The notes: generated by a model not told the origin, from the sequence alone. 64,000 nucleotides of DNA from Nitrospirales bacterium (GCA_963555755.3 OY820905.2:1536001-1600000), one strand, 5' to 3'. Shown: positions 42,931-64,000, counted from the first letter of the stretch. Program-made: numbers and translations.

Positions 42931-42996
42931 TCCCGAACCATCTGACTCAATCCAGCACTCCCTCATGACGATCGCTCACATCGGGCTGGCTCCTAG
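42931..42996. repeat. Right-end fragment of MITE family A
   Basis: ATCTGACTCAATCCAGCACTCCCTC...GGCTC-CTAG. Confidence 0.7.
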
Positions 42997-46823: not shown

Positions 46824-47144
46824 TAAATGGGAGGGCGGTCGAAAAATCAATCAAGTGTTTATAGTAATAGCCCACAAAGCCAGAGGAGAACCCGAAGGTT
46901 TCGGTGAGCAACGCCACGCCAATCGCCACCGCAATGCTTTCAAACGCATATTCAGGCCCCAAGATTGGAAAGATGATCATAAAGATTGGGGTGAACAGGG
47001 CCGCACCACCTATACCGCTGAGCATAGCGATCGTGGCCACACAAATAGCGACGGGAAACATAAACCAGTAGATCGTCCAATCGAATTGCGCCAATTCCAT
47101 ACTGAAAAATTCCTGAGAGTAAGTGTAGATGCCTTCGCAAGATC

Positions 47145-49502
47145 TTACTGGCAGCTCTTCTCCGCCTCCTCTCGGGACTCGAAGACGTTCCCGTTCTCCG
47201 CGAGGATGGAGAGCCGATCGATGGGTGCGTGGTAGGAGACGCGGTTTGGTCCGCCCGGCCCGAGCCAGGAGACCTCGATACGCTCTATCGTGTCAGCCGC
47301 ACCGAGACCTATATCGGCGAGATAGGGGGCGCTGCCGAAGCCTGTCTTGTTGTCCATGTGGCTGTAGTACACTTTGGACTCGGTATTTCCATTCTTGGTG
47401 TGCACCGCGATCGTTGATCCCAGGCCGTTGCGGTTGGCGACGCAGCCCTGGAGCCGCAGCTTGATCCAATGGTTGTCGGTCTGGCTCTCGTTCAGGAAGA
47501 GCTGGTTCGGCCACACATCGCCAGGCCAGAAGCCACCGAGGCTGGAGTAGATATCCTGGTCGCCATCCCGATCGAAGTCCGCAAAGACGATGCCGTGGCC
47601 CTTCTGAATTGTACCGAAGCCGTAGAGCATCGAGACATCGTCGGTTCCGGGGCCCTCGCCACGCTCGGGTCGGCCGAGGAGCATCTGATTCGGCAGGACG
47701 TACCAGCCCTCGGGCCCCCCCGTGCCGAGGTACCAATCGAGAGCCCCATCGTGGTTGAGGTCGCCGAAGTTGACACCCATCGGCGACTGGGGGAACTCGC
47801 CAAAATAGCCCGAGTCCTTCTCCCAATTCCCGGCTTTCTTTTGGAGCCAGACCCGCGACTGAGTCTGATAACGATCTTTGCCAGTCTGGAAGACGACCTG
47901 TTCTGTCACGGAATCGGCCACACCCAGTCCACCCACGAACAGGTCAAGCCGGCCGTCGTGGTTCGTGTCGACGAACGAGGTCATGAAGCCGAAGGCGTGC
48001 GAGTCGATCACATCGACGGCTTGAAAACGTCCACCTTCATTGTGAAGCAGGACCTCACTCGGAGCATAGAAACGGGTGACGGCCAAGTCCAGCTTGCCAT
48101 CGCTGTCATAATCGCCAAAGGCCGCCCCGATAATGAAGTGTCCATCCGTCACGGCATTGACGCCATACTCGTCGGTCACCTCGACAAAATGGCCGTCGTC
48201 GTTGCGGAAGAGCATGGACCGCGCATTCTCGTCGAGCGAGAAGACAGCGTGGAACCAGCTTCGTTTAAAATAGGTGCTATAGCCGTGAGCGTTGGCAACA
48301 AAGAGATCCAGATCTCCGTCGCTATCGATATCCCCCCAGGCCGATGCCCACGTCTGAAAGTACCGCTCATCATCGGCTGCGATCAAACCCGTGGAGCGCG
48401 TAACGTCCTCGAATGTGCCGTCGCCTTGGTTGCGCAGCAGAATGAAGTCACCGCGTTCGCTTCCGAAGTGCCGCCCGAAGAAGAGATCGATCCATCCATC
48501 GTTATCGTAGTCGGCCGCAGTGACGATGTGACCGGCCTTAAAGGCGGCGAGGCCCGATTCGACGGATCGATCGACGAAGGTCAGCTGGCCAAGCTCTGTG
48601 CAGCGATTCTCGTAGTAGGTGGTAGCCCTAAACCCGGAGGCGGTCACGATATCGAGGCACCCGTCTCGGTTGAAATCTTCGACAGCAATGCCCCTACCGG
48701 CACCCGGGCCGCCTGCGGCTCGAGACCAGTCGACCCCAATCTGCCCAGCCACGTCCCGGAAACGCAAGTTGGTGAACTTTGCCTCGATCTCTTTGCGCGC
48801 CGCGCCGTAGAAGAGGCTGTGAAAGGGGCTGTCCTCCACGAGCGCGTAGCGCTCGGGCACGCCCTCCGGGAAATCGTCGGCGGCCATCAACGTGAAGTTG
48901 ACCAGCCACTGGTAGAGTGGGTTGGGTCCATAGTCGTCCAGAAGCTGGGTCCACAGGTGGGCTGCCGACCGAGTCGGGGACTTGTCGTGGTGGTAGAGTT
49001 CCAAGGGAAGGGAACACATCCTCGAGTGGTCGAGCTCGGTCTCGTGATGGCCCGACTCGGCAAGGAGCTGGTCCAGGCAATTTGAGGCCTCGCCGAGTCG
49101 CAGGTACGCCATCGCGAGCCAAAACAGGTGATCCTCGGATTGGCCGTCTTGTTCGATCAGGCGCTCGAAGTAATCGACCGACGCTTGGAATTCGCCCCGG
49201 TGCCACGCGCGCTGGCCACAATCGAAGAGGTCGGCCGACGACGACGCGCACGCTTCATGAGAAAGAGCGATCACACCAGTTCCGTCGTGGTATTCGAGAG
49301 TTCGGGTTTTAGGATCAAGGTAGGCAAAGAGGCCACCCATCGACACGAGCGAGCTGAGGGAATCGTGATACAGGACCGATATCGGCAGCGTGATCAAGAG
49401 CGGGTTCTTGATCCAGATGACCGCGGTCACCGCGACGAAAATGATGGTGAGCGACAGCAAAACCCGGAATACAATTCTGCGTATGTTTTTCACATTGTTC
49501 AT
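47145..49502 (-). CDS. Membrane-anchored TPR + FG-GAP/VCBS + ASPIC/UnbV (CRTAC1-like) protein
   Basis: N-terminal TM; repeated DxDxDGxxD motifs; C-terminal NHWIKLRLQG..NRNGLG...IGLG. Confidence 0.85.
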   Translation of the reverse strand: MNNVKNIRRIVFRVLLSLTIIFVAVTAVIWIKNPLLITLPISVLYHDSLSSLVSMGGLFAYLDPKTRTLEYHDGTGVIALSHEACASSSADLFDCGQRAWHRGEFQASVDYFERLIEQDGQSEDHLFWLAMAYLRLGEASNCLDQLLAESGHHETELDHSRMCSLPLELYHHDKSPTRSAAHLWTQLLDDYGPNPLYQWLVNFTLMAADDFPEGVPERYALVEDSPFHSLFYGAARKEIEAKFTNLRFRDVAGQIGVDWSRAAGGPGAGRGIAVEDFNRDGCLDIVTASGFRATTYYENRCTELGQLTFVDRSVESGLAAFKAGHIVTAADYDNDGWIDLFFGRHFGSERGDFILLRNQGDGTFEDVTRSTGLIAADDERYFQTWASAWGDIDSDGDLDLFVANAHGYSTYFKRSWFHAVFSLDENARSMLFRNDDGHFVEVTDEYGVNAVTDGHFIIGAAFGDYDSDGKLDLAVTRFYAPSEVLLHNEGGRFQAVDVIDSHAFGFMTSFVDTNHDGRLDLFVGGLGVADSVTEQVVFQTGKDRYQTQSRVWLQKKAGNWEKDSGYFGEFPQSPMGVNFGDLNHDGALDWYLGTGGPEGWYVLPNQMLLGRPERGEGPGTDDVSMLYGFGTIQKGHGIVFADFDRDGDQDIYSSLGGFWPGDVWPNQLFLNESQTDNHWIKLRLQGCVANRNGLGSTIAVHTKNGNTESKVYYSHMDNKTGFGSAPYLADIGLGAADTIERIEVSWLGPGGPNRVSYHAPIDRLSILAENGNVFESREEAEKSCQ

Positions 49503-49541
49503 CGCGCTATCTCCGCTTTCCGAAGTTGTGAAGGCTGTACC

Positions 49542-50054
49542 TCATGTCTTGCAGTCGTATTTTTCTCCCTTCCCTTGACGTGGTTTTCGCTTGAAAACCG
49601 ACGTTGCCGTCCCAATGGCGGAACGCAACCTGCGCCACAGACGTGACAAGCCTAAGACTAAAGCGCCGACCCCGCCGGGGCCATACGGTGGGTAGGCCCG
49701 CAGCCGCGTGATCAAACCATCTTGGGTCTCGATCACGAAAACCTGGGAGAAATCCAGTTTCATGCCCATCTCGAGGACATGATGTGAGTCCACCTCAACA
49801 ACAGCTTTTCCTCCATCGGCAGACGTAAAGGAATGAACCACGACAAAACCGAAGCTCTTCATTTTGGGAAAGGCCCAACGAAGCCCTTCGAGAATCGCTT
49901 CGCGCCCCTCCATACGTGGTACGGGGTAATGCGGATCAACAAGAACTGCACCTTCGGCATACAGTCCGGCGATCGCAGTGAGATCTTTCGCTTCGACCGC
50001 CCGCAACAATTTTTCCATGAGAACGGCGGGAGTATCCTGTGTCCTATTCATCAC
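49542..50054 (-). CDS. SnoaL-like/NTF2-family protein
   Basis: LYAEGAVLVDP, GREAI, DGLITRLRAY motifs. Confidence 0.82.
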   Translation of the reverse strand: MMNRTQDTPAVLMEKLLRAVEAKDLTAIAGLYAEGAVLVDPHYPVPRMEGREAILEGLRWAFPKMKSFGFVVVHSFTSADGGKAVVEVDSHHVLEMGMKLDFSQVFVIETQDGLITRLRAYPPYGPGGVGALVLGLSRLWRRLRSAIGTATSVFKRKPRQGKGEKYDCKT

Positions 50055-51682
50055 GCTATCTCCCTTTTTCGAAGTTGTGAACGTTGTACCTTGCCGGTTT
50101 TCGTCTCGGGCAGACTGTCAACAAACTCAACCTTCCGTGGATACTTATACGGGGCCATCCTGCTTTTGACGAATGCTTGGAGTTCGGCGATAAGGGCATC
50201 ACCCGGCTCGTATCCTTCCCGCACCACCACAAAAGCCTTGACGATGTTTCCACGCATTTCGTCGGGGGCAGCTACCACCGCGCATTGGGCAACCGCCTTG
50301 TGCTCCTGCAACGCCCCTTCCACCTCGGGGCCAGAAATATTGTGGCCCCCAGATATAATCATATCGTCCGCACGCACCTCAAACCAGAGGTACCCGTCAG
50401 CATCCTGTCGACAGAGATCACCGGTTATGTTCCAACCGCCCTCAACATAGTCTCGCTGCCGAGGATCGGCGAGATACAAGCACCCGATAGGACCCCGCAT
50501 CGCGAGTCTGCCAATCTCCTCCGGCGGTAGCTGGGTCCCTTTCTCATCAATGACCCTCGCCTCGTATCCCGGCACGGGCTTGCCAATGGAACCGGGTCGG
50601 AGGGCGTCTTGCGGCGAGGAGAGGCACATATGAAGCAACTCAGTCGTACCGAAGCCATTTCGAAGCGCGACACCGGTTGCCTCTTTCCAGGCTTCACAGG
50701 TTGCCAGTGGCAGTGGCTCACCACCAGCAAGACACAGGCGCAACCCTTTTAAATCCATGCTTTCTGCCTGATCGAGCATCATCCGATAGGCGGTAGGGAC
50801 GGTCACGCAGATAGTCGCCTTGAAGTCCTGCATGCCGCGGAGGAGCACCTGAGGCTTGGTCTCCTCAAGAAGCACCGACGAGGCTCCCACCCGCATAGGG
50901 AAGAAGACCAACACATCCAGTCCAAACACGAAGCCAATCGACAAGTTACTGATGAAGATATCGTCTGCGGTTGCTTGAAAGAGATACCGTGAACAGGCGT
51001 CACCGGCAATGAGTGCGCTGCGATGAAAATGTACAGCTGCTTTGGGTACTCCGGTGGTGCCCGAGGTAAACGCAATCAAGACCGGATCGTCTCCTGCCGT
51101 GGCCACGTTTCGAAACTCCGTCTCCTTTTTGGCCATCCGAAACTCCAGGTCGGCGCCAGCCTCCGGCTTCCCCGACCCATTGAAATAACAAATGTCCTCG
51201 CACACAGGCGCCTGGCGTTGCCCAGCTTCCATCTCGTCCGCAAGGCGCTCGTCGCAAAGGGCCAGCTTGATCTGTGCCTTCTCAAGGATGGTGCTGATCT
51301 CATGCGCACGCTCGAGCGACATGGTGGCCACCACAATCCCGCCGGCTTTGGCAACAGCAAACCAGCATGCCACCTGCATCGGATTGTTCAGCGAGCGGAT
51401 CAATACACGGTTGCCGGGGACGAGGTTAAAATCATCGACCAACACATGGGCGATCCGATTCGAAGCTTCAAAGAGGTCCCCATACGTCCATCGTTGAGTT
51501 GGCGTTCGGAAAACCACGCGATCACCGTCTTCTGCCAGTACCCTGCCATCGAGGAGCTCAGCCGCACAGTTGAGTCGCTCGGGGTACGGGAACTGATCGA
51601 GATGAATTCGATCAGGCCACTCTTGTTCCGGTGGCAGGTTGTTGAGGACAAACCGATCAACGTGACTCGTGTAGCCAATCAT
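50051..51682 (-). CDS. Aryl-CoA ligase, 2-aminobenzoate/benzoate-CoA ligase family
   Basis: HVDRFVLNNLPP...YPERLNCA N-terminus typical of anthranilate-CoA ligases; FTSGTTGVPK, GFGTTE, PYKYPR, TGKVQR motifs. Confidence 0.82.
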   Translation of the reverse strand: MIGYTSHVDRFVLNNLPPEQEWPDRIHLDQFPYPERLNCAAELLDGRVLAEDGDRVVFRTPTQRWTYGDLFEASNRIAHVLVDDFNLVPGNRVLIRSLNNPMQVACWFAVAKAGGIVVATMSLERAHEISTILEKAQIKLALCDERLADEMEAGQRQAPVCEDICYFNGSGKPEAGADLEFRMAKKETEFRNVATAGDDPVLIAFTSGTTGVPKAAVHFHRSALIAGDACSRYLFQATADDIFISNLSIGFVFGLDVLVFFPMRVGASSVLLEETKPQVLLRGMQDFKATICVTVPTAYRMMLDQAESMDLKGLRLCLAGGEPLPLATCEAWKEATGVALRNGFGTTELLHMCLSSPQDALRPGSIGKPVPGYEARVIDEKGTQLPPEEIGRLAMRGPIGCLYLADPRQRDYVEGGWNITGDLCRQDADGYLWFEVRADDMIISGGHNISGPEVEGALQEHKAVAQCAVVAAPDEMRGNIVKAFVVVREGYEPGDALIAELQAFVKSRMAPYKYPRKVEFVDSLPETKTGKVQRSQLRKREIA

Positions 51683-51743
51683 CTTGTTCACTCCTTCCGT
51701 CAGCACACTCCTCGGATACGGTGGTCCAGGGCCAGGGCTTCTC

Positions 51744-54077
51744 TTACGTGTCCTCGATAATATGGAGGACGGCATCAAGTGGCCGGCGGAATGAACGATG
51801 CGTTGGCTCTTCGACCATCGCCAGCCGAAACAGCATGACTTCAGCCATGGCGTCGCTGACGGGGAATACCTTCTGGTAACGGAGGCGAAGCACGCGCAGT
51901 TCTTCCACCATGCCGGCACTGAACCCCTCACCATCCTTCCGTAGAAGTCGGGCGAAGAAATAGGGAAGCACCGTCATGGGCTGAAAGCCCATCTTACGAG
52001 TGGTCGCCGTAAGCCAGGCGCGTTCTATCGCACGACCACCATTGACGTAATCAATTTGTCGCGTGGAGGGCATGGTGACGAGCGCGACGGCACCGGCACC
52101 GGCAAGCCAGCGTTGCGACATGGTCTCGAGCGCACCGCCAACGCCCCACTGCTCTAATAAAGCAAGTGCATCAGGACGGTTTCGACAGAAATCAAAGCCT
52201 ACCACGTCCTGCGCTCTCATGCCCAACTCGTGAATCGAAAGGCCGTCTCCATGCTCCTGTGCGTCCTCCTGCGTCAGCCAGGTTTCGGCAAAGAGCCCTT
52301 GACGCATCGTTGGATTGAAAATACGCAAGCGATCCGCCGTACCCAGAAGCGCTCCCACCTCGGTTAACTCCTCCGGCAACGTGCAGATCTGGATATCTGC
52401 ACCAGGGATCGATTGAACGGCTCTCCTGATCGCGTCAAGGTCGGCCTGCGGTATCGGCCGCCGCGGACCTACGTTGCGATTGGTATGACGACGCGCCATC
52501 GCTTCATAAAGCCCGTTTTCGGTTTTCACTTCGGAAGAAGCATCGGGGGTTTGATGGAACTCAAAAGCTGCCACGACCTCCGGCAGATTCGGAGCAGGAA
52601 ACGGATGTATCCGAACACAGAAGCCCTCGTGGTGCGCGGCAAGTGTGAGATTCTCTGTCGCGGCACCGAGTCCCACCAGACTGCCCAAGTACTCGAAATC
52701 AAGGATCGGAGTGCTCCGTGTCCGATCGAGCGCCAATACGAGCCAGGGTGCCCGGTATACCCATAACCACGGCTGCGCGTTTCCGCCGGATGGCGCGGTG
52801 ACTGCCGCCTCTACCAAAAGCTTTACCGTCTCCCGTGTCAGCACGAGTGCCCCTTCGCGAACAGACAGCACCTCCCCACACTGCCTGCTCAGAGAGTCCG
52901 CCCAGTCAGGCGCTAACGTAATCCGGCTTTCCGCGTTAGGTTCATTTTGGGGAGAAAGAGGAACGTCTGACCCCATGATTATTGCTTCGGGGTCGGCAAA
53001 GTAACGACCCGAAGGCACATCCCCGTGAAGCGCCATGCGCCGCGAGAGAGATGCCGCGAGGGCCGCTTCGCCGAGTACCTCTGAGCCAAGCTGCGACACT
53101 CCCTTCACGCTCTGTTCGATCTCCATCAGAGAAGCCGCATGCCGTGGAGAGATCGTGTTGATCCCCAGAATCCCAAGCACAAATGGCAGCTTCTCTTCCA
53201 TGGTAAGCCCTCGCATCTCTTCGACCGACACGTCAGGGGCTAATCCGTGGAAAAGCGGACGATCCGGTTCAAGATCAAACCGTTCGCTGTCCACGAGCCA
53301 ACGATCGCTCGTCACCATCAGGACCGGGATTTGATGCGAGCGGGCCTTTTCCCGCACTAAGATTTTGATGTCCGGACTGTCGCACTCCTCAATGACCAGA
53401 TCGAGCTTTCCTCCTTCAAGGAAAAATGCCTCGACGTTCTCCTCTGTCACGCCTTCGGGAAAACAGGTCACCGAAAGGAACGGATCAAGTTCCGCAATCT
53501 CTCGGGCTGTCATCGCAGCCTTCGACAGACCGAGGTTATGGATACCCGTCCGGATGCGGTTCAAGTTCGAAAGCTCCAATTCGTCGAAGTCAGCGATCCG
53601 AAGCTCTCCACAGCCCCGCTCAAGAGCCAAGGAAAGAGCCACCGATTGACCCACCGAGAGTCCCACAACACCAACCCGCCACGAAGCCAGACGGCGCTGT
53701 TCATCTGGAGTAATTTTGTACTTGTTACGATCCGTCCGTAGCTCGACGAACTCGGCCTCGGGAAGAAGGTGGACCAAGCGACCACTCCAGGAGTAATAGA
53801 CCCATACCCCATACGCTTCGAGCGAGACCCCCTCGAGGTGTTCATCGATGAGCTGATGTGTCTTTTCAGCAGAGAGTGTCTGTCGGGGGTGACGCGTCGC
53901 CATCAAATCAGAGAGCTGGAGCGGCAGTGTGTCAAAGACCCAAACACGCGGGTCAGCTCGGAGTTCTCTGATGATCCGGGCATCTCCTTCCCTCTGCGGG
54001 TTTAAGAGTGTGGGCTTACCCACTTGATGTCCCTCCCGCGAGTCGAGGGAGCCTAATAACTCATGTGTACTGGTCAT
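51744..54077 (-). CDS. ThiF-nitroreductase didomain enzyme (Rv1355c/OxzB-like)
   Basis: WVYYSW, RTDRNKYKIT..EQ, GLSVG, ADFDELELSNLNR; APSGGNAQPW and RRHTNR nitroreductase motifs. Confidence 0.85.
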   Translation of the reverse strand: MTSTHELLGSLDSREGHQVGKPTLLNPQREGDARIIRELRADPRVWVFDTLPLQLSDLMATRHPRQTLSAEKTHQLIDEHLEGVSLEAYGVWVYYSWSGRLVHLLPEAEFVELRTDRNKYKITPDEQRRLASWRVGVVGLSVGQSVALSLALERGCGELRIADFDELELSNLNRIRTGIHNLGLSKAAMTAREIAELDPFLSVTCFPEGVTEENVEAFFLEGGKLDLVIEECDSPDIKILVREKARSHQIPVLMVTSDRWLVDSERFDLEPDRPLFHGLAPDVSVEEMRGLTMEEKLPFVLGILGINTISPRHAASLMEIEQSVKGVSQLGSEVLGEAALAASLSRRMALHGDVPSGRYFADPEAIIMGSDVPLSPQNEPNAESRITLAPDWADSLSRQCGEVLSVREGALVLTRETVKLLVEAAVTAPSGGNAQPWLWVYRAPWLVLALDRTRSTPILDFEYLGSLVGLGAATENLTLAAHHEGFCVRIHPFPAPNLPEVVAAFEFHQTPDASSEVKTENGLYEAMARRHTNRNVGPRRPIPQADLDAIRRAVQSIPGADIQICTLPEELTEVGALLGTADRLRIFNPTMRQGLFAETWLTQEDAQEHGDGLSIHELGMRAQDVVGFDFCRNRPDALALLEQWGVGGALETMSQRWLAGAGAVALVTMPSTRQIDYVNGGRAIERAWLTATTRKMGFQPMTVLPYFFARLLRKDGEGFSAGMVEELRVLRLRYQKVFPVSDAMAEVMLFRLAMVEEPTHRSFRRPLDAVLHIIEDT

Positions 54078-54151
54078 GGTGATACCCGTGTATTGTGTGT
54101 TTGCCAAACCACAACAGAAATTCCGTCCTCCTATTAGGACAAGTCGTTTGT

Positions 54152-54319
54152 CTAGGAGCCTGTCCGAGATTAGGCTGATCTACTACGAATGCGCTGGATT
54201 TGGCCAGATCTTTCGATCCTTTTCGTGTAATAGCCCAACTATTCGCCTTACACGATCGAAAAATCTGACTCAAACCAGCACCCCCTTGCGACGATCGCTA
54301 ATCTCGGACAGGCTCCTAG
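54152..54319. mobile_element. MITE family A, minimal copy without nested inserts (168 bp)
   Basis: CTAG-GAGCCTGTCCGAGATTAG...CTAATCTCGGACAGGCTC-CTAG, perfect inverted repeats. Confidence 0.9.
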
Positions 54320-54346
54320 GAGGTAATACACTGGAACTCGATGAAA

Positions 54347-55105
54347 TCACCCGGCCTTTCGACACCGAAATGTCAAATGGAGAGGTTTGTCTCGGAGCGG
54401 GCCAAAGAACTCGGGGGCGAGCCGCATATGCTCGTCGGTCACACCGAGTTCGCACAGTTCCGGAATGCTCGTGAAGCCGGCTCTGCCAAGACACTCGAAG
54501 TAGTCCTGGAGTGTCTTATGAACACACAAGACCTTGACACTGCCTCCACCCCGCATCCCCATCTTTCCTTCAAGGATGCGACCCCTGTCAGAAAAGTACC
54601 TTACGTCGCCTTGCCCAAAGAAAAGAGGAAGGACGCTCTCCGATATGAAGGGAAAAAACGGATGGGGAACGACAAAAACGAATCGGCCTTCCGGCCGCAG
54701 CATACCGTGAATGCGTCCCATGGCAGCCTGCATGTCTTCCGGGATAAGATTATTCAGACAAAAGACTGCCACGACTAGGTCAAACGAGGCGTCGGAGAAC
54801 TGCAACCGTGCCGCATCCCCGATCAGGTATTGAATCCCCCTCGGTGACACTTTTTCTCGTTCCTCCGCGCCACGGATCATGGCGCTCGATAGGTCCACGC
54901 CCACGACTTTTCCCGCGCCGCGCTCGTGCATGCGGCGCGTAAAGTAGCCTTCGCCGCAACCGACGTCGAGAACATCGGCTCCGTTAAGCGGTTCGCACCA
55001 TTCAAGAAGAAAGGGACGAGCCGTGAAATCGGAGAGAAGAGTTGGGTCTTCCCGACTCCAGTCCGCGCTCGTTCGATCATAGAGCTCACGCGACAATTCG
55101 GGCAT
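54347..55105 (-). CDS. Class I SAM-dependent methyltransferase
   Basis: VLDVGCGEG, GVDLS, FDLVVA, LRPEG motifs. Confidence 0.9.
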   Translation of the reverse strand: MPELSRELYDRTSADWSREDPTLLSDFTARPFLLEWCEPLNGADVLDVGCGEGYFTRRMHERGAGKVVGVDLSSAMIRGAEEREKVSPRGIQYLIGDAARLQFSDASFDLVVAVFCLNNLIPEDMQAAMGRIHGMLRPEGRFVFVVPHPFFPFISESVLPLFFGQGDVRYFSDRGRILEGKMGMRGGGSVKVLCVHKTLQDYFECLGRAGFTSIPELCELGVTDEHMRLAPEFFGPLRDKPLHLTFRCRKAG

Positions 55106-56675: not shown

Positions 56676-56687
56676 GACTAAGTAATT

Positions 56688-59402
56688 TCATTTATGTGCT
56701 CTCTTACAGTCTACGACTCCCATTTTCCGATCTACACACAGCGTTTCACGGCTAACAGGGCTTTCTAAACTGATTATCTGTCGAGCATCCTTTTGATTAC
56801 CAGAAGGCCAAACTACTTCCAGATCTTTCAACGGTTCTTTCCCCAAACCTATCAACATGTCGCCGGCGTAGCTGGAAAAACTAATGCCGCCGACAGTATA
56901 ACGCCGCATAATACTGCCATTAACAATGACTTTGGCACCTACGGCATAATGGTTATTCGACTCAATGTCGAGCAATCTCAATTTCACCCAGTGCGCTTTA
57001 TCCTCATCTGCTACTCCTCCATTGATGTACAGGAACGTCCTTCCTGCTTCCAAACTTCTCGGTGGTTTCACTATCTTATTCGGAGCCGGAACGGCCATCG
57101 TGAGCGGGCCGACTTTTATTTTCATATTTTTTGCGTTTGGTGATAAAGAGTCATAACCTGCTTTATGACGCACTAACAAATCGGCGTATCCGTCATTGTT
57201 CAAGTCAGCTGACACCATTCCCACAGCGGCTTCATGCATTCTGAAAATGTCGTGAATTTGACTTGTCTCGGATGCGTATAATCCCACCCCTGAAATAGCA
57301 TCCATATCCTCCACAGTGACATAGTCCCGTTTGTGCCACCCAGTACCAGGAGAGGGGCGTCTTGGGGGAACATGGTCATAATCCATGAGATCGATATCTA
57401 AAACCCGATAGTCGATAGTCTTGTCCCTAAAATTAAATTCATTAACCACGCTTTCATTTATCAACAGGCGTCCCGGCCCCCCCAATTGATCACCGGCGCC
57501 GCCGTCGTTTCCCCGCGCTAACGCTCCTGCTAGGTAAATATCTAAATCACCATCATTTTCAACATCAAAAAATACCGGCCCCCAGGCAAACTCCAGACCT
57601 GTGATACTACTTCCCATGTTGTCTCGGTGGTACACATGACGTAACTGCGGGATCACGTTATTCACGTTCGTCATGTCCGGCGGAATCACAGAGTGCTCTA
57701 TTTTCGTTGCGCTCGTTTTCTCTTTCAGCACACCATCTGAGAAACTCATGAACGCATGCGAAAGATGAGACTTATTATCTTTGGCATTCGAACCTGAGAT
57801 ACTACCTAATGCCTCAGTGGGATCTCCATTTTGCTTAAAGGTCATTGCAACATAGCGAAGCGAAATAAACTGGCTACCACAACTTGTCACCAGTACTTCA
57901 TCTGACAAGTCCCCATCTAAGTCAGCGGTTTGAATTCCCATCCAGCAACCATTCCAGTATTCTTCGTCGTAGGTTTTTATTCTTTCAAATGACTGACCTT
58001 GGATATTCTTATAGACTCGCAGGCGATTACCAACATCATTCGCCACAATCAGATCGGGCCATAGGTCGTCATTCCAGTCGACAAGCTGTGCGGCCCAAGA
58101 GTGATCAGCAACTTCTCCGACCAGCTTCCCCCCTACGCGTTGCTCCCCAATCTCAACGGATCCCCCTAGTCGATCGAAATACACCGATGAGGGTAACCCT
58201 TCTTCTTTATGGAGGCCCGCAACGCCATAGTCGAGAGCAGACTCTTTAAAGGTTAACTCCCCCGTCTCAGCGAGTTGGTTGAGATAAAGTTGATTTCTAT
58301 TTCCGGCAAACCGTGACATGCTAAAACCGTGAAAGTCTGCGTCAAGGAAATTAGCAACATAAATATCAATGTCACCATCTCTATCAATGTCAGCAACAGT
58401 TACCCCAACGGAATCCCAGTGCCCCCCGACATTAGCTGCCTCTGTTACATCCTGCCACTCAGGGATGCCATCTAGATCCAAATCACCTAGGTTTAGCAAT
58501 AGTGTGTTACGCCCCTCACGCTCCTCCTTTTCCCCTAAAGAAAGTGTCACTGTCAGGCCATCTTCTTCCCCTGCGGCCATAAAGGAAGGGACTTTAATTA
58601 AATAAGCTTCATTGTCGTTAGCATCTCTACCGATATTGTCGGCTAGAGGATACAGGCGAAAGGCAGTTTCGTCACTCTGAGCATTTTGACCGTAGTGTCC
58701 ATTGACAATGTAGAGGTCCAACTTGCCATCACCATTGAAATCTGCAGCGACGGCCCCATTGTTCTGCCGACTAGTCAATTCATGACCGCCGACGGGATAG
58801 GTATGATTTCGAGGACGAAAACTATCTTCGATCGCCAGTTCTTTACCCGCGCAGTTAAAATCTTCTTGCTTCGCAATTAAATCCTGAACACTGTTATAAA
58901 CAGGATTTCCCTGCTCGTCATTTCCCTGATTGAGCATCAGAGTAGAGGGATGGCTTTTAATTGGCTGAGTGGTAGAAATAACCCCTTCCTTTGACATGGC
59001 CCTTCCGATAAGGCGCCCAAACTCAGGCATATAGAGATCTAATCTGCCGTCACCATTGGCATCAAACACGGTGACACCTACAGGATAGATAATCTGATTA
59101 GATTCACCCCAGCGCCCCAAACTACGCCCTATTTCATGAAAGGGAGTGATTGCTGACTTTACACCACTCGCCTTAGAAGCAACATTTTCCGCGAGTGGAA
59201 TATCTGCACTCTCATTAGTTCCCGCCAGCAGCGTTTTCTCACATCGCTCCTGAATTTTTGCCTTTTGAACATCGGTCAACACGACAGGCACTTCCGATGG
59301 ATCGATCTCAAATGAGGCATCGCGCGCGGCCCAAAACCAGCCTATCACAGCTATCAGAATAACGAACGCAGAGAACAATGGTATTTTTAACTTCTTTAAC
59401 AA
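56688..59402 (-). CDS. Membrane-anchored FG-GAP/VCBS + ASPIC/UnbV protein
   Basis: DANGDGRLD, DFNGDGKLD, DIDRDGDID, DWNDDLWPD repeats; C-terminal HWVKLRL...AVGAKV...IGLG..WPSG. Confidence 0.85.
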   Translation of the reverse strand: MLKKLKIPLFSAFVILIAVIGWFWAARDASFEIDPSEVPVVLTDVQKAKIQERCEKTLLAGTNESADIPLAENVASKASGVKSAITPFHEIGRSLGRWGESNQIIYPVGVTVFDANGDGRLDLYMPEFGRLIGRAMSKEGVISTTQPIKSHPSTLMLNQGNDEQGNPVYNSVQDLIAKQEDFNCAGKELAIEDSFRPRNHTYPVGGHELTSRQNNGAVAADFNGDGKLDLYIVNGHYGQNAQSDETAFRLYPLADNIGRDANDNEAYLIKVPSFMAAGEEDGLTVTLSLGEKEEREGRNTLLLNLGDLDLDGIPEWQDVTEAANVGGHWDSVGVTVADIDRDGDIDIYVANFLDADFHGFSMSRFAGNRNQLYLNQLAETGELTFKESALDYGVAGLHKEEGLPSSVYFDRLGGSVEIGEQRVGGKLVGEVADHSWAAQLVDWNDDLWPDLIVANDVGNRLRVYKNIQGQSFERIKTYDEEYWNGCWMGIQTADLDGDLSDEVLVTSCGSQFISLRYVAMTFKQNGDPTEALGSISGSNAKDNKSHLSHAFMSFSDGVLKEKTSATKIEHSVIPPDMTNVNNVIPQLRHVYHRDNMGSSITGLEFAWGPVFFDVENDGDLDIYLAGALARGNDGGAGDQLGGPGRLLINESVVNEFNFRDKTIDYRVLDIDLMDYDHVPPRRPSPGTGWHKRDYVTVEDMDAISGVGLYASETSQIHDIFRMHEAAVGMVSADLNNDGYADLLVRHKAGYDSLSPNAKNMKIKVGPLTMAVPAPNKIVKPPRSLEAGRTFLYINGGVADEDKAHWVKLRLLDIESNNHYAVGAKVIVNGSIMRRYTVGGISFSSYAGDMLIGLGKEPLKDLEVVWPSGNQKDARQIISLESPVSRETLCVDRKMGVVDCKRAHK

Positions 59403-59425
59403 AGTGATTACTCTACCTCTGCCTA

Positions 59426-61120
59426 CTACAAGATGTTGTTATCAATATACCCACGAAACAACGGAGTTCGATAAGTCTTGCTTACTTCCTTTATTTTTGT
59501 GGCTAGCCCTGCATCAAGCGCCACCTCTAACTCTAGCAGATCTGTAATACGCTCATAAGAAACTAGTGTAATGCGCAAGAATACCTTTCCGTCTCTCTCT
59601 ACAGGCCGAAGATATACTTGCTCCATTCCAAATTCATGGTTATTCACTCCATAAAACTTCCCCTCCTTATGATGGGTAAGATAAGCGTAGTGTGGTTTTG
59701 GGCCTTCGGACATTCGCAGATAACGACGTTCGATATTTTCCGACGCAGATAAAACACCAACACCAAAAGCCGGAATGGCGTAATCCTCCTGGAAAACGAG
59801 TAGTGATAAGGGAATATTACCAAGAACGATGGCACGAGATTCATCACTCGAGTAAATAACCAGTTCAAGACTTTCGAGATCATTGTACTTAGACTCATTG
59901 TTCTCATAGGAAGTTAACGGTGATACTCCCTTTATCGTCACTCGATTCCAATTCGGATCGTAAATCACTGGCTCAATCTTCGTAGATGAGTAGACACCCG
60001 GGGGAACAAACGCAATTAATTCAAAAGTATCCCCTGCTTTTAACTCACTAAATTCTTTTGCTTCAAACTCTTCACCATCACGGGTAATAGTAAAAAAGTT
60101 TTTCTGTGTTTTACGTCGAGAATCTTGAGAAGAGTAGCTTCCAATTTTCTTACCATCAGCAAGCTGTAGCTTGGAATCTTGAATAATACCTTTACTTTTT
60201 CGCAGAGTGTCAAGATCAAGCAAGACCGCTATCCCCGTCTTATATTTTAGGATTTTTAAAAGATCCCAATCAGTAGTCACAATGTTATTGTTTGCCCGTA
60301 TCGCATCGAAATAAATATCTCTTGGTAAATCAACCCAACCATGAAACATCTCTCCCACAGAGTCTTTCGCATTTATTTCCCAAAGCCCCGGTGAAAGACA
60401 ATTATTGGTAATGCTCATCCTTGTTGGTAAAATCCCACTATTTGGCAGAATTTCATTGTCTTGAAAGAGGTATTCCCCACCCTTATTGAAGACTCCCTCG
60501 GTCGCCCAAAACGAACCAAAATGCTTATTATTTTCTTGATAGCTTAGAGTAAGACCGACACGAGCGTATTCTGCCAACATCAAGTTATAGGCATCGAATT
60601 CTGTTATCTCTTGAGAAATATTATACGGTAGCAATGGGGTTAAAAACCTGCTATCAATCTCTTTATAGAAAACCTTTTTTGCATTTTCTTTTTTACCATC
60701 TGTAAGTGTAAAATTAAACAACTTGCTTTTCGGACTAAAGTCAACTATCACATTATCAAGACTATTTAGAACAGAATGATAGCGATTAAGAGACTGAGTA
60801 TTGCCCGTCAGTGGCTGACCACTATCTAGAGTATATTCTTTTTTGTAATCCACTTTTATCGGAAGATTACTCTCCACAATCATGACTAGGCTTGAGCCAA
60901 AATTAACAATCAGTAGGACCATCACGACGATCGCTATCAAGACATTAAATATCACTATTTTATTTCTTGCCAATATTTCCTTGATATCAAACGACTCATT
61001 TTTTGATATAAACTTACTCATCACATTAGAGTTCTTATTTAAGACCGAATCGATCATTTGTTGCCACATCATGATGCTGTCAGCTTTGTCTCGTTTGAAA
61101 ATACAGTAACTTCTGCCCAC
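59426..61120 (-). CDS. Hypothetical membrane-anchored protein (AT-rich; start uncertain)
   Basis: 564-aa ORF with one N-terminal TM segment; no recognised motif. Confidence 0.7.
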   Translation of the reverse strand: MGRSYCIFKRDKADSIMMWQQMIDSVLNKNSNVMSKFISKNESFDIKEILARNKIVIFNVLIAIVVMVLLIVNFGSSLVMIVESNLPIKVDYKKEYTLDSGQPLTGNTQSLNRYHSVLNSLDNVIVDFSPKSKLFNFTLTDGKKENAKKVFYKEIDSRFLTPLLPYNISQEITEFDAYNLMLAEYARVGLTLSYQENNKHFGSFWATEGVFNKGGEYLFQDNEILPNSGILPTRMSITNNCLSPGLWEINAKDSVGEMFHGWVDLPRDIYFDAIRANNNIVTTDWDLLKILKYKTGIAVLLDLDTLRKSKGIIQDSKLQLADGKKIGSYSSQDSRRKTQKNFFTITRDGEEFEAKEFSELKAGDTFELIAFVPPGVYSSTKIEPVIYDPNWNRVTIKGVSPLTSYENNESKYNDLESLELVIYSSDESRAIVLGNIPLSLLVFQEDYAIPAFGVGVLSASENIERRYLRMSEGPKPHYAYLTHHKEGKFYGVNNHEFGMEQVYLRPVERDGKVFLRITLVSYERITDLLELEVALDAGLATKIKEVSKTYRTPLFRGYIDNNIL

Positions 61121-61557
61121 ATTCTCTTCCGAGCAACGACTTGTCCTTTAGCTTGATCTAGCGTGTGGGTTTGCCTGAGTTCCGCGCTGTAGTGAAGTGC
61201 TTGTGTTGCCCCCGGCCACATCACTTCAATGTCCTCGATGCGAACCGCATCGCCTAAGCCTATATGGGCTACATAGGGAGCGCTGCCGAAAGAGGTCTTG
61301 TTACTCATGTGATAGAAGCGTTCAAATCTATTACCTTTTGATCCCATGGCAATCACTCGAATTTGAGCGCCAATTCCAGAGCGATTGTTCTCGCGCCCCA
61401 GTAGCCGGAGCTTGATCCAAACATTTGATCGGAGTTCTCCGATGATCCGGACATCTTCTTCCCTCTGCAGGTTTAAAAGTGCGGGCTTACACACTTGATC
61501 GACCGCCCGTGAGTCTAGTGAGCCTAGGAAATCATGTGTATTTATCATAAGGGACAC
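61069..61557 (-). pseudogene. Chimera of an Rv1355c-like N-terminus and an ASPIC/UnbV C-terminal domain
   Basis: THDFLGSLDSR...KPALLNLQREEDVRIIGELRS matches the 54077 gene start; NVWIKLRLLG...FGSAPY matches the 47145 gene end. Confidence 0.75.
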
Positions 61558-61647
61558 CTGCGTCTTGTGTGTGTGTCAAACAACAACAGAAATCCTCTCC
61601 TCACCCAGTTCGCACCATTTCCCCCCTCATCTCTCTCGTACAGATCT

Positions 61648-62655
61648 TTACAGGCCTCTGTTAAGTTCTCTCGTGAATCGCTCAACCTCCTGCTCTAATC
61701 CTGGGGCAGTTGGTGTTTTAGGGCTTGTGCAGCGTACAACCTGGAGACAATCACACCGTCCATGCTCAGTGTAATGCCAGGCGGGTAGGTAGGCCGTAAT
61801 CTGGAAGCCAAGCTTCCGCATAGCGCGGACCAGTGCAACTTTGTCTGCAAGAACATAGGCGAAGACATGCTCCTTTTGGGGTGCCACGGAAAGCAACGCC
61901 GCAAGTCCCTCATCTGTAGCCTTGGCTCTTTCCTCTGACCCTAGGATGTGCACGATGTGAAGCGACTCCCCCTCAGCGGCGAGACGGTAGTCAATACGCC
62001 AGTTCCCGTCCGTAGCATAATCCGTACCAGGCGGCCCGACGATCGGGGTGTTCGGATAGGCCCCAGTGATCGTTTCAAGCGAAAGTGGCTTAAGAATCTC
62101 ATCCTTGACAAACGCTGCCCAGGGCAGTGTCTCTGCCGGTGCGATGCGTCGAGGGGTATGCTCAGGGTTCAGGGTGAAGCCTGCGAAGATGGCTTCCCTG
62201 GAACCATTATTCACATGCATTCCGCCATCATGCCCTCCAATAACCGTCGCACCCCTATTGGTGTTCTCAAAAATTGGAAGAAATGTATGACGGATGTATC
62301 CCATAACAAGCTCACAGTCTCGCCGGGCATAGAGAAGCTTCATACAGGCAGCCCGCAAGTCCGTAGCAATATTGCGGACTCGATGGGCAAGATCGGTGGC
62401 CCCCCAGCACGTTTCGTATACGCGGTTCCAGCCGTGCCACACGGCCGCAATGCACCCCACGACCCTGCTCTCCACAGTCGCGACAAGCCACAGATCCGGC
62501 CGATTCATGGACTCCCGGACGAACTCCGGATCCTCGCACTCGTGGATGGGCCCTCCCCTCGTCCTCGGATACGCTTGCCGGAACAGCCCAGCGATCGACT
62601 CCACGTCCCTCTCGACTGCCACGCGTATTCCGTAGGTGCTCTCACGTTCAAGCAT
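61648..62655 (-). CDS. GNAT-fold (acyltransferase-like) protein
   Basis: IRVAVERDVESIAGLF..., WLVATVESRVVGCI, LGFQITAYLP; strong RBS GAGGAGG before ATG 62655. Confidence 0.65.
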   Translation of the reverse strand: MLERESTYGIRVAVERDVESIAGLFRQAYPRTRGGPIHECEDPEFVRESMNRPDLWLVATVESRVVGCIAAVWHGWNRVYETCWGATDLAHRVRNIATDLRAACMKLLYARRDCELVMGYIRHTFLPIFENTNRGATVIGGHDGGMHVNNGSREAIFAGFTLNPEHTPRRIAPAETLPWAAFVKDEILKPLSLETITGAYPNTPIVGPPGTDYATDGNWRIDYRLAAEGESLHIVHILGSEERAKATDEGLAALLSVAPQKEHVFAYVLADKVALVRAMRKLGFQITAYLPAWHYTEHGRCDCLQVVRCTSPKTPTAPGLEQEVERFTRELNRGL

Positions 62656-62756
62656 GTCTTCCTCCTCCTCAAGTCCAGGTGGCCCAAAAAGAAAGAGTTG
62701 GTCTTTTCCTTCCCCCGCCAGAGAGAGAAGTAGAAAATATACAGCAAACAAGCGTA

Positions 62757-64000
62757 TTAGCTGACTGGCTGACCCACAAGCGCCAGATCCGCACACATTT
62801 GGTCCAAAGCTTGAAACCGTGGTTCGCCTTCGAACGCAAAAAGCCTGTCCTCTTCCCACTTCTCCGGATCAAGTCCCACAGCATAGGGATTGACACACGC
62901 CCCAGATAATGTGCTCTCTTCTTTGGGCAGCACATCGGCTACTGCCAACCTAAAGAACACACGGGCGTAGTCTTCAAACAACTGAAGTGAGCCGGCCATC
63001 TCCTCCAAGAACTCCTGGGGACTTTTTTCGCGAACACTTCCCCGCATGACCTCACATATATTCGGAAATCCCCTCAGGGGATCATAGAAGCCAGCCGGCA
63101 GTTTTTTCCCCGATCGAAGCTTCGCCCACTGTATGAAGAGTGCCTGGACTTGCCGATTCAAGCGGATGAACTGCCGCGTCAACGCAAGATACTCGGGCAG
63201 AATCTCCTCGTGTTCCAGAAATCCCAAAAAGAGCAACTGGGCTGGTCCGGCGAAATACTGCCCGCCGTCCCAAAACGGTTTCATGAGCATAAGGAAGTCA
63301 TCACCAAGAACCTCATACATGCTGGAAAACATATCCGTACACATCCCTGCCCACCCGAGGTACAGCTCATTGTAGTGGTTCACAATTTCGTCCGTCAGTT
63401 GCCCCGCAAGCGTAAGTTCAATGAGGCGAATAACGATCGTATCAGCCCAGGCAATCAAGTCTGCGCCGTTTGAAAAGAACGGATCCGTAAACGCTGCTGC
63501 CTCACCTACACAAAACCACCCCGTCCCCGAGAACGCACGCTCGATCGAATGGGACAGCTTCTTATATGCCAAAAAGTCGATTGGCTGTGTGCTCGCTAGC
63601 CATTTCGCAACTATCGGCTCATGGCGCTCAAGCCAAGCAAACGAACTTTCATAGGTGTTTCGGCTCTTGATAGGATGGAGCCGCTCAGTCCCGACGATTC
63701 CAATACTGGTGTAGTCATCAGGCAGTGGAATAAACCATACCCAGTACCCTTCGCCAAAGAGATGCAACGTCGTATCTCTTCGGGTTTCAACCCGCCGGTG
63801 CCAGGCGGCGTTTTCTTTGGGGACAAGATCAGACACGTCCAACGCTCCCTTGACCCGCCACCAGGTCGCGTTTGCTGGATTCTCCAATTCCCGTGCCAGG
63901 CTCAACTTTTGAGCCAGAAAGCGCCGCCGGCCAGTAGCATCCACCACGAAGCGGCACGATACAGTTTTCTTCTCCCTGCTTCCGCTATCCTCGTAGACCA
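62757..64000 (-). CDS. Flavin-dependent halogenase-family protein, partial, 5' end outside the window
   Basis: FVVDATGR, WVWFIPL (WxWxIP), VGEAAAFTDPFFSNG motifs. Confidence 0.82.
   Translation of the reverse strand, partial: VYEDSGSREKKTVSCRFVVDATGRRRFLAQKLSLARELENPANATWWRVKGALDVSDLVPKENAAWHRRVETRRDTTLHLFGEGYWVWFIPLPDDYTSIGIVGTERLHPIKSRNTYESSFAWLERHEPIVAKWLASTQPIDFLAYKKLSHSIERAFSGTGWFCVGEAAAFTDPFFSNGADLIAWADTIVIRLIELTLAGQLTDEIVNHYNELYLGWAGMCTDMFSSMYEVLGDDFLMLMKPFWDGGQYFAGPAQLLFLGFLEHEEILPEYLALTRQFIRLNRQVQALFIQWAKLRSGKKLPAGFYDPLRGFPNICEVMRGSVREKSPQEFLEEMAGSLQLFEDYARVFFRLAVADVLPKEESTLSGACVNPYAVGLDPEKWEEDRLFAFEGEPRFQALDQMCADLALVGQPVS

Follow-up and report, generated by a model that had tools for sequence, protein, structure and literature searches.

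A candidate carrier-free gene cluster for a halogenated N-acyl amino-acid oxazolone in a Nitrospirales bacterium

Introduction

A co-oriented gene run of a Nitrospirales bacterium (GCA_963555755.3, OY820905.2:1536001-1600000) raises the question of which product a halogenase, a GNAT protein, a methyltransferase, a ThiF-nitroreductase and an aryl-CoA ligase might form together. The window is the whole stretch of DNA that was analysed, 64,000 nucleotides, and the genes under study lie at 47145..64000. To our knowledge, such specialised chemistry is little known in Nitrospirales. A sequence-only reading had proposed that an aromatic, possibly halogenated acyl-CoA is transferred to an amino acid, and that the conjugate is then cyclised, oxidised and methylated.

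Results

Gene content and genomic context

The single co-oriented run described in the sequence-only reading was recovered: all six genes it named are intact open frames in the minus strand. It overlooked that about 40% of 47145..64000 consists of FG-GAP/ASPIC-UnbV genes and duplication debris. The cluster starts 5 kb past the window end. The features are as follows, those outside the window upstream of the halogenase being given in L001 coordinates.

42993..44042, minus strand: second DAHP synthase, 49% identical to the other copy in the genome
44588..47100, minus strand: TauE/SafE exporter gene, split into two pieces (46753-47100 and 44588-45319)
45334-46626, plus strand: transposase gene between the TauE/SafE pieces
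47145-49502, minus strand: TPR, FG-GAP and ASPIC/UnbV (CRTAC1-like) protein, 785 aa, N-terminal hydrophobic helix
49542-50051, minus strand: SnoaL-like protein, 169 aa, whose start overlaps the ligase stop
50051-51682, minus strand: acyl/aryl-CoA ligase, 543 aa, 2-aminobenzoate-CoA ligase family, with intact ATP motifs and a remodelled pocket
51744-54077, minus strand: ThiF-nitroreductase, 777 aa, predicted oxazolone synthetase of the Rv1355c/TrzS family
54150..54322, no strand: MITE (about 170 nt, terminal inverted repeats) separating the methyltransferase gene from the ThiF gene
54347-55105, minus strand: class I SAM methyltransferase, 252 aa
55086-56675, minus strand: in-frame chimera of 529 aa, a deletion scar overlapping the methyltransferase start
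56688-59402, minus strand: FG-GAP/ASPIC-UnbV (CRTAC1-like) protein, 904 aa, N-terminal hydrophobic helix, GC 0.47
59426-61072, minus strand: orf548, 548 aa, no known family, one N-terminal hydrophobic helix, GC 0.385
61069-61548, minus strand: in-frame chimera, a deletion scar joining a ThiF-nitroreductase 5' remnant to an ASPIC/UnbV C-terminus
61648-62655, minus strand: intact tandem-GNAT protein, 335 aa, predicted amino-acid N-acyltransferase
62757-64451 (62757..64000 in the window), minus strand: two-component flavin-dependent halogenase, 564 aa, AetA-like (38%)
L001 2525-3409, co-oriented, outside the window: orf294, weakly DIT1/PvcA-like, upstream of the halogenase
L001 3422-5065, co-oriented, outside the window: NadB/fumarate-reductase-like flavoprotein
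L001 5377-6981, co-oriented, outside the window: FAD/NAD(P) oxidoreductase, a core gene, with IS630 beyond it

The genes are separated by short gaps, and IS630 bounds the upstream end of the co-oriented genes. The locus is a GC mosaic, with a GC3 of 0.63 in the ligase, 0.60-0.62 in the core genes and 0.37-0.45 in the inserted genes. The absence of NRPS and PKS genes was borne out: no condensation domain was found in the whole genome, its three carrier-protein matches are all far from the cluster, and neither was found in or near the cluster itself. The second DAHP synthase is a possible supplier of aromatic precursors, its membership of the cluster being uncertain. A promoter and terminator scan of the locus performed no better than chance, and one RNA run gave patchy low-depth contigs, mostly at 47-53 kb, which as contigs cannot show transcription.

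The ThiF-nitroreductase and its tandem GNAT partner

The ThiF-nitroreductase contains PF00899 and PF00881 in one chain, scores 746 bits against NF005901 (cut-off 476) and is 32% identical to actinobacterial Rv1355c members. By spacing, through an actinobacterial homolog (D199, R524, Q635), Asp233, Arg585 and Gln699 are candidate counterparts of the catalytic Asp (D217) and the flavin-site Arg and Gln (R540, Q651) of M. smegmatis TrzS. According to PMC12856293, Rv1355c is TrzS, which cyclises and desaturates N-acyl-Trp, and OxzB and TyzB belong to a different SSN subcluster. By family assignment (NF005901; PMC12856293), the enzyme is nearer to TrzS/Rv1355c than to OxzB, the model named in the sequence-only reading.

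Where the sequence-only reading counted GNAT-like protein(s), 61648-62655 is a real tandem GNAT, but 55086-56675 is a chimera and not a second GNAT. OxzA and TrzA are FeeM-type acyltransferases. None of the 53 members of the GNAT family found here matches PF21926 (FeeM/NasY type), hhalign gave a probability of 0.2% for a FeeM protein and of 2% for the neighbour of a Rhodococcus Rv1355c, and no FeeM acyltransferase was found in the 99%-complete genome. At the sequence level the GNAT partner is unlike the FeeM-type acyltransferases of known oxazolone pathways. A fold search with the GNAT model returned single GNAT domains of a generic kind (highest Z 13.4, about 145 residues), with no FemX-, NMT- or FeeM-like top match, a result that does not exclude such folds.

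Members of this GNAT family are fused to a ThiF-nitroreductase in P0168, P0171 and P0174, in the reverse order in P0246/P0298, and to a methyltransferase in P0178. Among the matches listed, which include 46 GNAT loci, many of them near-copies of one another, the GNAT adjoins a ThiF-nitroreductase in 13 and a desaturase in nine (metagenome loci). The B. stagnalis homolog also lies directly before a desaturase, as a pair; no desaturase was found among the genes of the Nitrospirales cluster. In the ThiF-nitroreductase tree, 10 of 11 GNAT-linked enzymes form one branch (SH-aLRT 99). Fusions, neighbourhoods and this clade all back the earlier suggestion that the two proteins act as a pair that acylates and then cyclises and oxidises. 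In the Microbulbifer phylum (401 genomes) the GNAT profile had no match at 1e-40; in a myxobacterial phylum it matched 19/301 genomes, all of them more weakly (1e-20 to 1e-33).

The halogenase and upstream flavin genes

The start of the halogenase gene lies 451 nt past the window end (L001 2451). The protein shows the GxGxxG, catalytic Lys and WxWxIP features of two-component flavin-dependent halogenases: GGGFAG at 11, Lys77 in EKYG, and the announced WxWxIP motif as WVWFIP at 237, together with FTDPFFS. Lys77 aligns with the KxG of 8ZOP and AetA, so that loss of the catalytic Lys, named beforehand as an argument against the cluster, is contradicted by the alignment. Identity to AetA, the aetokthonotoxin indole brominase, is 38% over 573 aa, and the two-component motifs are shared; according to PMC10306068, AetA brominates free indoles and needs no carrier protein. 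AetA belongs, however, to a different pathway, no AetF-like gene was identified at the Nitrospirales cluster, and 38% identity does not fix the substrate of the predicted halogenase.

Searches for a flavin reductase partner found no PF01613 in the genome and one distant PF03358. The co-conserved FAD/NAD(P) oxidoreductase may supply the halogenase with reduced flavin. That this oxidoreductase could itself be a single-component halogenase like AetF drew no support from its 19 PDB matches, none of which is AetF. A scan of the genome collection with the halogenase gave eight distant loci, none with core genes, and none of 18 myxobacterial Rv1355c loci contains a halogenase. FOXRED2 was not connected with a gene cluster in any paper of the open literature searched.

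A sister cluster and the predicted pathway

Among the matches listed, the core was found in one other lineage, at an Acidobacteriota locus (L025) with 57, 51, 72, and 40% identity for the FAD oxidoreductase, ThiF-nitroreductase, halogenase and GNAT, respectively. L025 also contains an O-methyltransferase, which shows no sequence match to that of the window. Changes between both clusters show a third-position excess, and the window proteins pair with those of L025 in the ThiF-nitroreductase (support 100) and GNAT (100/99) trees. Lack of conserved co-occurrence, the other argument foreseen against the cluster, is thereby answered, since halogenase, methyltransferase and core recur in a second lineage. 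The link of the halogenase to the GNAT/ThiF-nitroreductase pair is confined to these two lineages, with a halogenase in one of the 46 GNAT loci among the matches listed.

Because the core is conserved in L025 and the GNAT is paired with the ThiF-nitroreductase, we consider a halogenated, methylated N-acyl aromatic amino-acid oxazolone, made without NRPS or carrier protein, the probable product. Observed are the genes present, their families and motifs, and their fusions and co-occurrence. On this footing, the tandem GNAT would use an acyl-CoA to form an N-acyl aromatic amino acid, tryptophan being the most likely; the TrzS-type enzyme would activate this conjugate by adenylation, close the ring and introduce a double bond, with the AetA-like halogenase and the methyltransferase as predicted tailoring enzymes of the ring. 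All reactions are predictions, and so are the choice of amino acid, the sequence of steps and whether Br or Cl is added. The acyl group would come from the acyl-CoA pool of the cell, unless the remodelled ligase feeds a special one in the Nitrospirales strain, a tentative suggestion to which we give somewhat less than even weight. As the halogenase occurs without the ligase, a halogen on the amino-acid ring or product is more plausible than one on the acyl donor.

The CoA ligase and the question of an aromatic acyl donor

The ligase shows the adenylate-forming core motifs FTSGTTGVPK, GFGTTE, TGD, RADDM and PETKTGK, and is 57-61% identical to annotated 2-aminobenzoate-CoA ligases, its best solved relative being an anthranilate-CoA ligase (4WV3). 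With this family, defined by annotation, it shares the ATP-binding motifs, but differs mostly in the acid pocket. Of 262 positions conserved in the family (same residue in at least 95% of 119 homologs), 50 are changed, against a median of two and a maximum of 19 in the homologs. The changes affect 20/34 conserved positions in pocket segments, which were picked after the alignment had been viewed, and 30/228 elsewhere. Pocket departures include positions 245-248, 252, 256, 257, 352 and 353, and the family GSPP and GG motifs are replaced by SNLS and DV; plain anthranilate is therefore a doubtful substrate.

An aromatic acyl donor is possible, and the ligase could activate a possibly halogenated aromatic acid, with the GNAT passing it on to an amino acid. 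The product would be a 2-aryl (aroyl) oxazolone or, where the aroyl group has an o-amino substituent, the result of ring expansion, for example a benzodiazepinedione. The ligase lies 61 nt behind the ThiF-nitroreductase, overlaps the SnoaL gene and matches the core genes, not the inserted ones, in GC3; its changes are concentrated in the pocket while the ATP motifs are kept, as for a re-tuned substrate, and a second DAHP synthase lies downstream. One GNAT locus (L062) also has an adjoining 42% ligase, but this is divergently transcribed and beside the desaturase type. No ligase was found in L025 (20.7 kb) or in the 13 ThiF-linked GNAT loci among the matches listed, only four of which have several kb of flank. 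With the altered pocket, this leaves the aromatic, possibly halogenated donor of the sequence-only reading unsupported as stated, and we regard such a route as rather unlikely. Slightly less probable still is its full form, in which a re-tuned aryl/heteroaryl-CoA ligase and a tandem GNAT of a new family give, carrier-free, an N-aroyl aromatic amino acid, from which the TrzS-type enzyme forms a halogenated 2-aryl-4-arylidene azlactone or ring-expanded heterocycle. The GNAT family would then be a shared entry to two unrelated kinds of ring closure, ATP-dependent for oxazolones and desaturase-dependent for oxazoles.

Rearrangement of the locus

The 61069-61548 chimera begins with a 45-codon ThiF-nitroreductase start (81% nt identity to 53958-54130). 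The 55086-56675 chimera joins a TPR/FG-GAP gene start (56675-55895) to GNAT residues ~80-335 (55894-55121), this 3' part being 95% identical to the intact GNAT. Misassembly of a duplicated GNAT was rejected, and the rearrangement is real: one 5,939-nt contig covers both scars in three of four runs (the fourth being a shallow RNA run), in two of which a 635-nt repeat shows about double depth, and the scar-spanning sequence recurs with 0-1 differences in runs from two studies. The best-covering runs may include the source sample. The layout likely arose from two diverged tandem operon copies, each cut by a deletion, and the cluster was apparently imported and partly duplicated.

The locus may be decaying, because it is IS-flanked, its exporter gene is split, two scars are present and the operon contains a MITE, an element that occurs genome-wide in 41 near-full copies. 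A mosaic of foreign modules, brought together by IS activity, in part deleted and no longer yielding a product, would fit the GC mosaic, the absence of the cluster from 60 relatives examined and of the UnbV gene from 200 genomes of the phylum, and the divergence of the ligase. We nevertheless hold this to be improbable: a single intact copy of every core gene remains, both scars are in frame, catalytic motifs are intact, near-identical sequence recurs in two studies and the ligase changes fall in the pocket and not in the ATP motifs.

Additional genes

Five co-oriented genes (NadB-like, PvcA-like, orf548 and two UnbV genes) are not accounted for by the proposed oxazolone model. Least probable of all, and by our estimate very improbable, is a different chemistry with the PvcA-like and NadB-like genes, or the secreted UnbV proteins, as genuine members. 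The oxazolone would then be no more than an intermediate, or the acid activated by the ThiF enzyme would be another one, such as an N-formyl or isonitrile amino acid. The shared orientation and short gaps of all genes, the PvcA-like feature match and stieleriacine-type clusters, whose ThiF and nitroreductase gave no observed oxazolones (PMC12479983), are consistent with this reading. However, the PvcA-like, NadB-like and UnbV genes are absent from L025, most of the extra genes differ in GC, and the PvcA assignment of orf294 is weak, with no significant PDB match and no match in the plasmid search. The UnbV proteins are likely outside the cytoplasm because of their N-terminal hydrophobic helices. 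No match to orf548 or the 904-aa UnbV protein was obtained in plasmid searches, nor to orf548 in the PDB. UnbV is known from enediyne clusters; an enediyne cassette was rejected, with neither a PKS-sized gene nor a carrier nearby, and searches joining ASPIC/UnbV with a cluster gave nothing relevant in the open literature searched.

Discussion

The predicted oxazolone pathway resembles TrzA-TrzS (Rv1356c-Rv1355c), which makes N-acyl tryptazolones (PMC12856293), in its ThiF-nitroreductase family and predicted acylate-cyclise-desaturate logic. It differs in its 335-aa tandem GNAT in place of a FeeM-type partner, in an enzyme on a separate GNAT-linked branch, in the added halogenase, methyltransferase, FAD oxidoreductase and CoA ligase, and in having no adjoining sensor kinase or c-di-GMP genes. 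With OxzA-OxzB (tyrazolones/phenazolones) and TyzACB it shares, by domain content and gene neighbourhood, ThiF plus nitroreductase and an adjoining N-acyltransferase, here the tandem GNAT in the operon, but their products are untailored fatty-acyl oxazolones (bioRxiv 10.1101/2020.06.11.147165). The stieleriacines, thalassotalic acids and kyonggic acids likewise involve an N-acyl amino-acid synthase, ThiF, nitroreductase and methyltransferase, but with a NasY-type synthase, split ThiF and nitroreductase and no halogenase, and the isolated products are ring-open dehydro acids (PMC12479983). By analogy, such acids could also be formed by the Nitrospirales cluster.

A two-gene, desaturase-containing pathway makes labradorin/indolyloxazoles in Pseudomonas entomophila and is widespread in Burkholderia (Brachmann et al. 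2021, as cited in PMC13500788 and PMC12871615). The GNAT homologs before desaturases in B. stagnalis and, among the matches listed, nine metagenome loci fit this description, and from gene context we suggest that they may be the labradorin acyltransferase. In contrast, the Nitrospirales cluster has no desaturase, and its predicted ring closure is ATP-dependent and keeps the carboxyl. The term indolyloxazole gave no match in open-literature text searches. No paper among the matches listed in a search of the open literature joined an oxazolone term with 'halogenase'.

Described oxazolone pathways give plain fatty-acyl compounds of unknown role. The cluster would be, within the open literature searched, the first halogenase-tailored version. 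It suggests that oxazolone pathways can begin with a different kind of acyltransferase, a tandem GNAT that elsewhere pairs with desaturases, and it points to specialised metabolism in Nitrospirales. If the aroyl route were true, a natural halogenated azlactone from a bacterium of a nitrite-oxidiser group would result. Marine samples contain halogenated azole natural products with indole or phenol groups, of which we know no makers; the cluster is, speculatively, a candidate route to them. The small enzyme set (GNAT, ThiF-nitroreductase, halogenase, methyltransferase and new-pocket ligase) also offers possible biocatalysts.

Organization of the biosynthetic cluster

The window covers C1:1,536,001-1,600,000 of a 4.62 Mb genome (99.4% complete). 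In 90% identity clusters, the genome's ThiG, Ffh and proteasome ATPase group with records that carry the names Nitrospira or Nitrospirales, which confirms the order suggested by the sequence-only reading. The cluster is encoded on the - strand and begins beyond the end of the window; coordinates above 64,000 therefore extend the window numbering past its end. Genes are listed 5' to 3' on the - strand.

Features of the cluster and its borders
About 69.7-70.5 kb, transposase, which we take to be IS630-like, at the 5' end of the listed order
68981-67377, - strand, FAD/NAD(P) oxidoreductase
67065-65422, - strand, NadB-like flavoprotein
65409-64525, - strand, orf294
64451-62757, - strand, halogenase
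62655-61648, - strand, tandem GNAT
61548-61069, - strand, chimera of ThiF start and UnbV end
61072-59426, - strand, orf548
59402-56688, - strand, FG-GAP/UnbV protein, 904 aa
56675-55086, - strand, chimera of TPR-FG-GAP start and GNAT end
55105-54347, - strand, methyltransferase
54150-54322, MITE with terminal inverted repeats, between the methyltransferase and ThiF-nitroreductase genes
54077-51744, - strand, ThiF-nitroreductase
51682-50051, - strand, CoA ligase
50051-49542, - strand, SnoaL protein
49502-47145, - strand, TPR/FG-GAP/UnbV protein, 785 aa
44588-47100, TauE/SafE exporter gene, containing a transposase gene (45334-46626) that divides it
42993-44042, second DAHP synthase, 49% identical to the genome's other copy, between IS elements

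Intergenic gaps range between -20 and 101 nt, with the exception of 311 nt before the NadB-like gene and 269 nt at the MITE, and further IS genes are found beyond the second DAHP synthase on the 3' side. The sequence-only reading noted no NRPS/PKS in view; a domain search of the whole genome found no condensation domain and three carrier-protein matches, all distant from the cluster. The low-GC orf548 encodes 548 residues with an N-terminal hydrophobic helix, is coupled to the 904-aa UnbV gene, and shows no match in Pfam, NCBIfam, PDB or plasmids.

The halogenase and a conserved core shared with Acidobacteriota

The halogenase shows the motifs GGGFAG, WVWFIP and FTDPFFS, and its Lys77, the expected catalytic residue, aligns with the KxG motif found in AetA and in a halogenase of solved structure. 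AetA is described as a two-component brominase acting on free indoles (PMC10306068); the two proteins are 38% identical. Three AetA-like halogenases (P0058, P0083 and P0109) carry a fused C-terminal partial AMP-binding domain.

An Acidobacteriota MAG protein with 72% identity to the halogenase is encoded, at 100% identity, in the locus L025, in the order oxidoreductase (57%), ThiF-nitroreductase (51%), halogenase, GNAT (40%) and O-methyltransferase. The association of halogenase, GNAT, ThiF-nitroreductase and methyltransferase proposed from the window recurs in a second lineage. Window and L025 proteins are sisters in both the GNAT and the ThiF-nitroreductase trees, and all four window/L025 pairs show a third-position excess of changes. 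Since the 20.7 kb of L025 contain no homolog of the CoA ligase, SnoaL, UnbV, NadB-like, orf294 or orf548 genes, the oxidoreductase, halogenase, GNAT, ThiF-nitroreductase and some methyltransferase constitute, on gene content, the conserved core.

The host genome has no PF01613 flavin reductase and a single PF03358 protein, encoded away from the cluster; therefore, the FAD/NAD(P) oxidoreductase may supply FADH2. A Nonomuraea homolog (48%) is flanked by genes for an AMP-binding enzyme and a P450 (L078, 10412-14938), so this oxidoreductase family recurs in biosynthetic settings.

The ThiF-nitroreductase is related to TrzS

With 746 bits against a cut-off of 476, the ThiF-nitroreductase falls into the Rv1355c family (NF005901), and its D233, R585 and Q699 would correspond by spacing to D217, R540 and Q651 of TrzS. 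Rv1355c is TrzS, which together with TrzA yields N-acyl tryptazolones through ATP-dependent cyclisation followed by O2-dependent desaturation (PMC12856293), and the OxzAB products are given as tyrazolones and phenazolones (bioRxiv 2020.06.11.147165).

In 60 relatives, no full-length ThiF-nitroreductase homolog, no match to the tandem GNAT profile and no close halogenase were found; distant halogenases (29-35%) are present in eight of them. In a tree of 26 ThiF-nitroreductases, built by a quick method from rows picked via GNAT, 10 of the 11 GNAT-linked proteins form one branch (SH-aLRT 99), separate from 15 actinobacterial and myxobacterial sequences. Eighteen myxobacterial Rv1355c loci are without tandem GNAT and halogenase; the neighbours scanned (19 of 122 ORFs) are mostly kinases, and FeeM once.

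The tandem GNAT as predicted N-acyltransferase

The tandem GNAT is the main new point of the cluster. Its structure model is confident (pLDDT 92.7), with a standard GNAT domain forming the N-terminal half. No FeeM match was found among 53 family members, a profile search detected no FeeM gene in the host genome, and profile-profile comparisons were blank for a FeeM protein as well as for the gene adjoining a Rhodococcus Rv1355c.

The family comprises 104 representatives at E <= 1e-30 in a profile search. Among ten longer matches scanned, GNAT is fused to ThiF(-nitroreductase) in three, with 44-56% identity between their ThiF part and that of the window; one each is a reverse-order, a methyltransferase and an acyl-CoA dehydrogenase fusion. 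Among the matches listed from 46 metagenome loci, GNAT lies beside a same-orientation ThiF-nitroreductase in 13 (about seven lineages once near-copies are merged) and directly 5' of a fatty-acid-desaturase-like gene in nine; seven show neither partner and 17 have <900 nt downstream. The B. stagnalis homolog is likewise paired with a desaturase. The labradorins (indolyloxazoles) of P. entomophila are reported to arise from a pathway of two genes, including one for a desaturase-like enzyme, that is widespread in Burkholderia (PMC13500788, PMC12871615), and the GNAT and desaturase pairs may correspond to it. Because an N-acyl aromatic amino acid would be the substrate of both partner types, GNAT is best read as an amino-acid N-acyltransferase.

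Acyl-CoA dehydrogenase, fused to or following the tandem GNAT (P0159/L043), is a possible third partner type. In L030 (4203-13319) a methyltransferase-GNAT-ThiF-nitroreductase run directly follows haem biosynthesis genes including glutamyl-tRNA reductase, and in L053 (5000-16700) a GNAT and desaturase pair is near isochorismatase-carrier, PLP decarboxylase, cyclodipeptide synthase and WelO5-like genes.

Proposed pathway and the role of the CoA ligase

We consider it somewhat probable that the core directs an oxazolone pathway of acylation, cyclisation/desaturation, and halogenation and methylation. GNAT would join an acyl-CoA to an aromatic amino acid, and the ThiF-nitroreductase, by analogy with TrzS, would adenylate the N-acyl amino acid, close the ring and then desaturate it to an arylidene oxazolone. 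The indole or phenol ring would be halogenated at one or another step, and the methyltransferase, whose PDB matches are generic (among them one named ToxA, at 1e-13), would perform N-, O- or C-methylation. Trp is favoured as the amino acid acylated, by analogy, since indoles are the substrates of TrzS, the desaturase pathway and AetA alike. A ring-opened dehydro acid, the form given for the stieleriacines (PMC12479983), might be what is isolated. Oxazolone biosynthesis itself is already known; a literature search, with most subscription papers outside its scope, found no tandem-GNAT entry enzyme in oxazolone synthesis, no halogenase-tailored oxazolone pathway and no Nitrospirales host.

An aroyl donor supplied by the CoA ligase is a less probable version. 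The ligase has 119 best homologs (57-61% identity), often annotated as 2-aminobenzoate-CoA ligase, anthranilate-CoA ligase 4WV3 is the solved structure that matches it best, and it keeps all ATP motifs; the remodelled pocket makes plain anthranilate doubtful as substrate. Of 262 columns conserved in >=95% of homologs, 50 carry a different residue in the ligase, compared to a median of 2 and a maximum of 19 for the homologs, a contrast biased by these defining the consensus. Changes affect 20 of 34 such columns in pocket segments, chosen post hoc on the alignment, versus 30 of 228 elsewhere, and the enzyme looks re-tuned rather than dead. Its GC3 is core-like; that of the orf548, 904-aa UnbV, orf294 and NadB-like genes differs. 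Among the matches listed, one of the 46 GNAT loci has an adjacent full-length family member (L062, divergent, desaturase type), and three others show 25-28% matches from an adjoining siderophore-type cluster.

Duplication and deletion scars

Positions 55121-55894 repeat 61635-62408 with 95% identity; in this GNAT repeat protein identity is 68% over the first ~40 codons, and a single base differs in the other 211. Positions 61429-61602 repeat the start of the ThiF gene (81%), with changes falling evenly on the three codon positions (8/7/10), the pattern of a dead copy. The two UnbV remnants share 42 and 54% identity with the intact 785-aa gene. The simplest history would be two diverged tandem operons with one in-frame deletion in each, part of GNAT being recently homogenised between copies. 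Decay of the whole locus, to which such scars might point, is improbable; each core gene survives as one intact copy. Some other chemistry is the least probable explanation.

The duplicated arrangement is genuine: in sequencing runs X1, X2 and X5, which come from two studies and may include the source sample, a contig of 5,939 nt covers 55746-61684 with 0-1 differences; depth over the 635-nt repeat is about double in X2 and X5; and the oxidoreductase is linked to GNAT by a contig of 6,809 nt.

Around the cluster, the MITE has 41 near-full genomic copies and many longer relatives, and an imperfect inverted repeat of 72 nt (74%, 44060-44232) lies directly upstream of the DAHP synthase gene. The ORF at 24463-25776, recognised by eye, may encode a group II intron reverse transcriptase. 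At about 87.6-97.0 kb in extended coordinates (L002), polysaccharide genes and IS elements surround the genes of two paralogous membrane proteins, each of ~1,000 aa and resembling glycosyltransferases.
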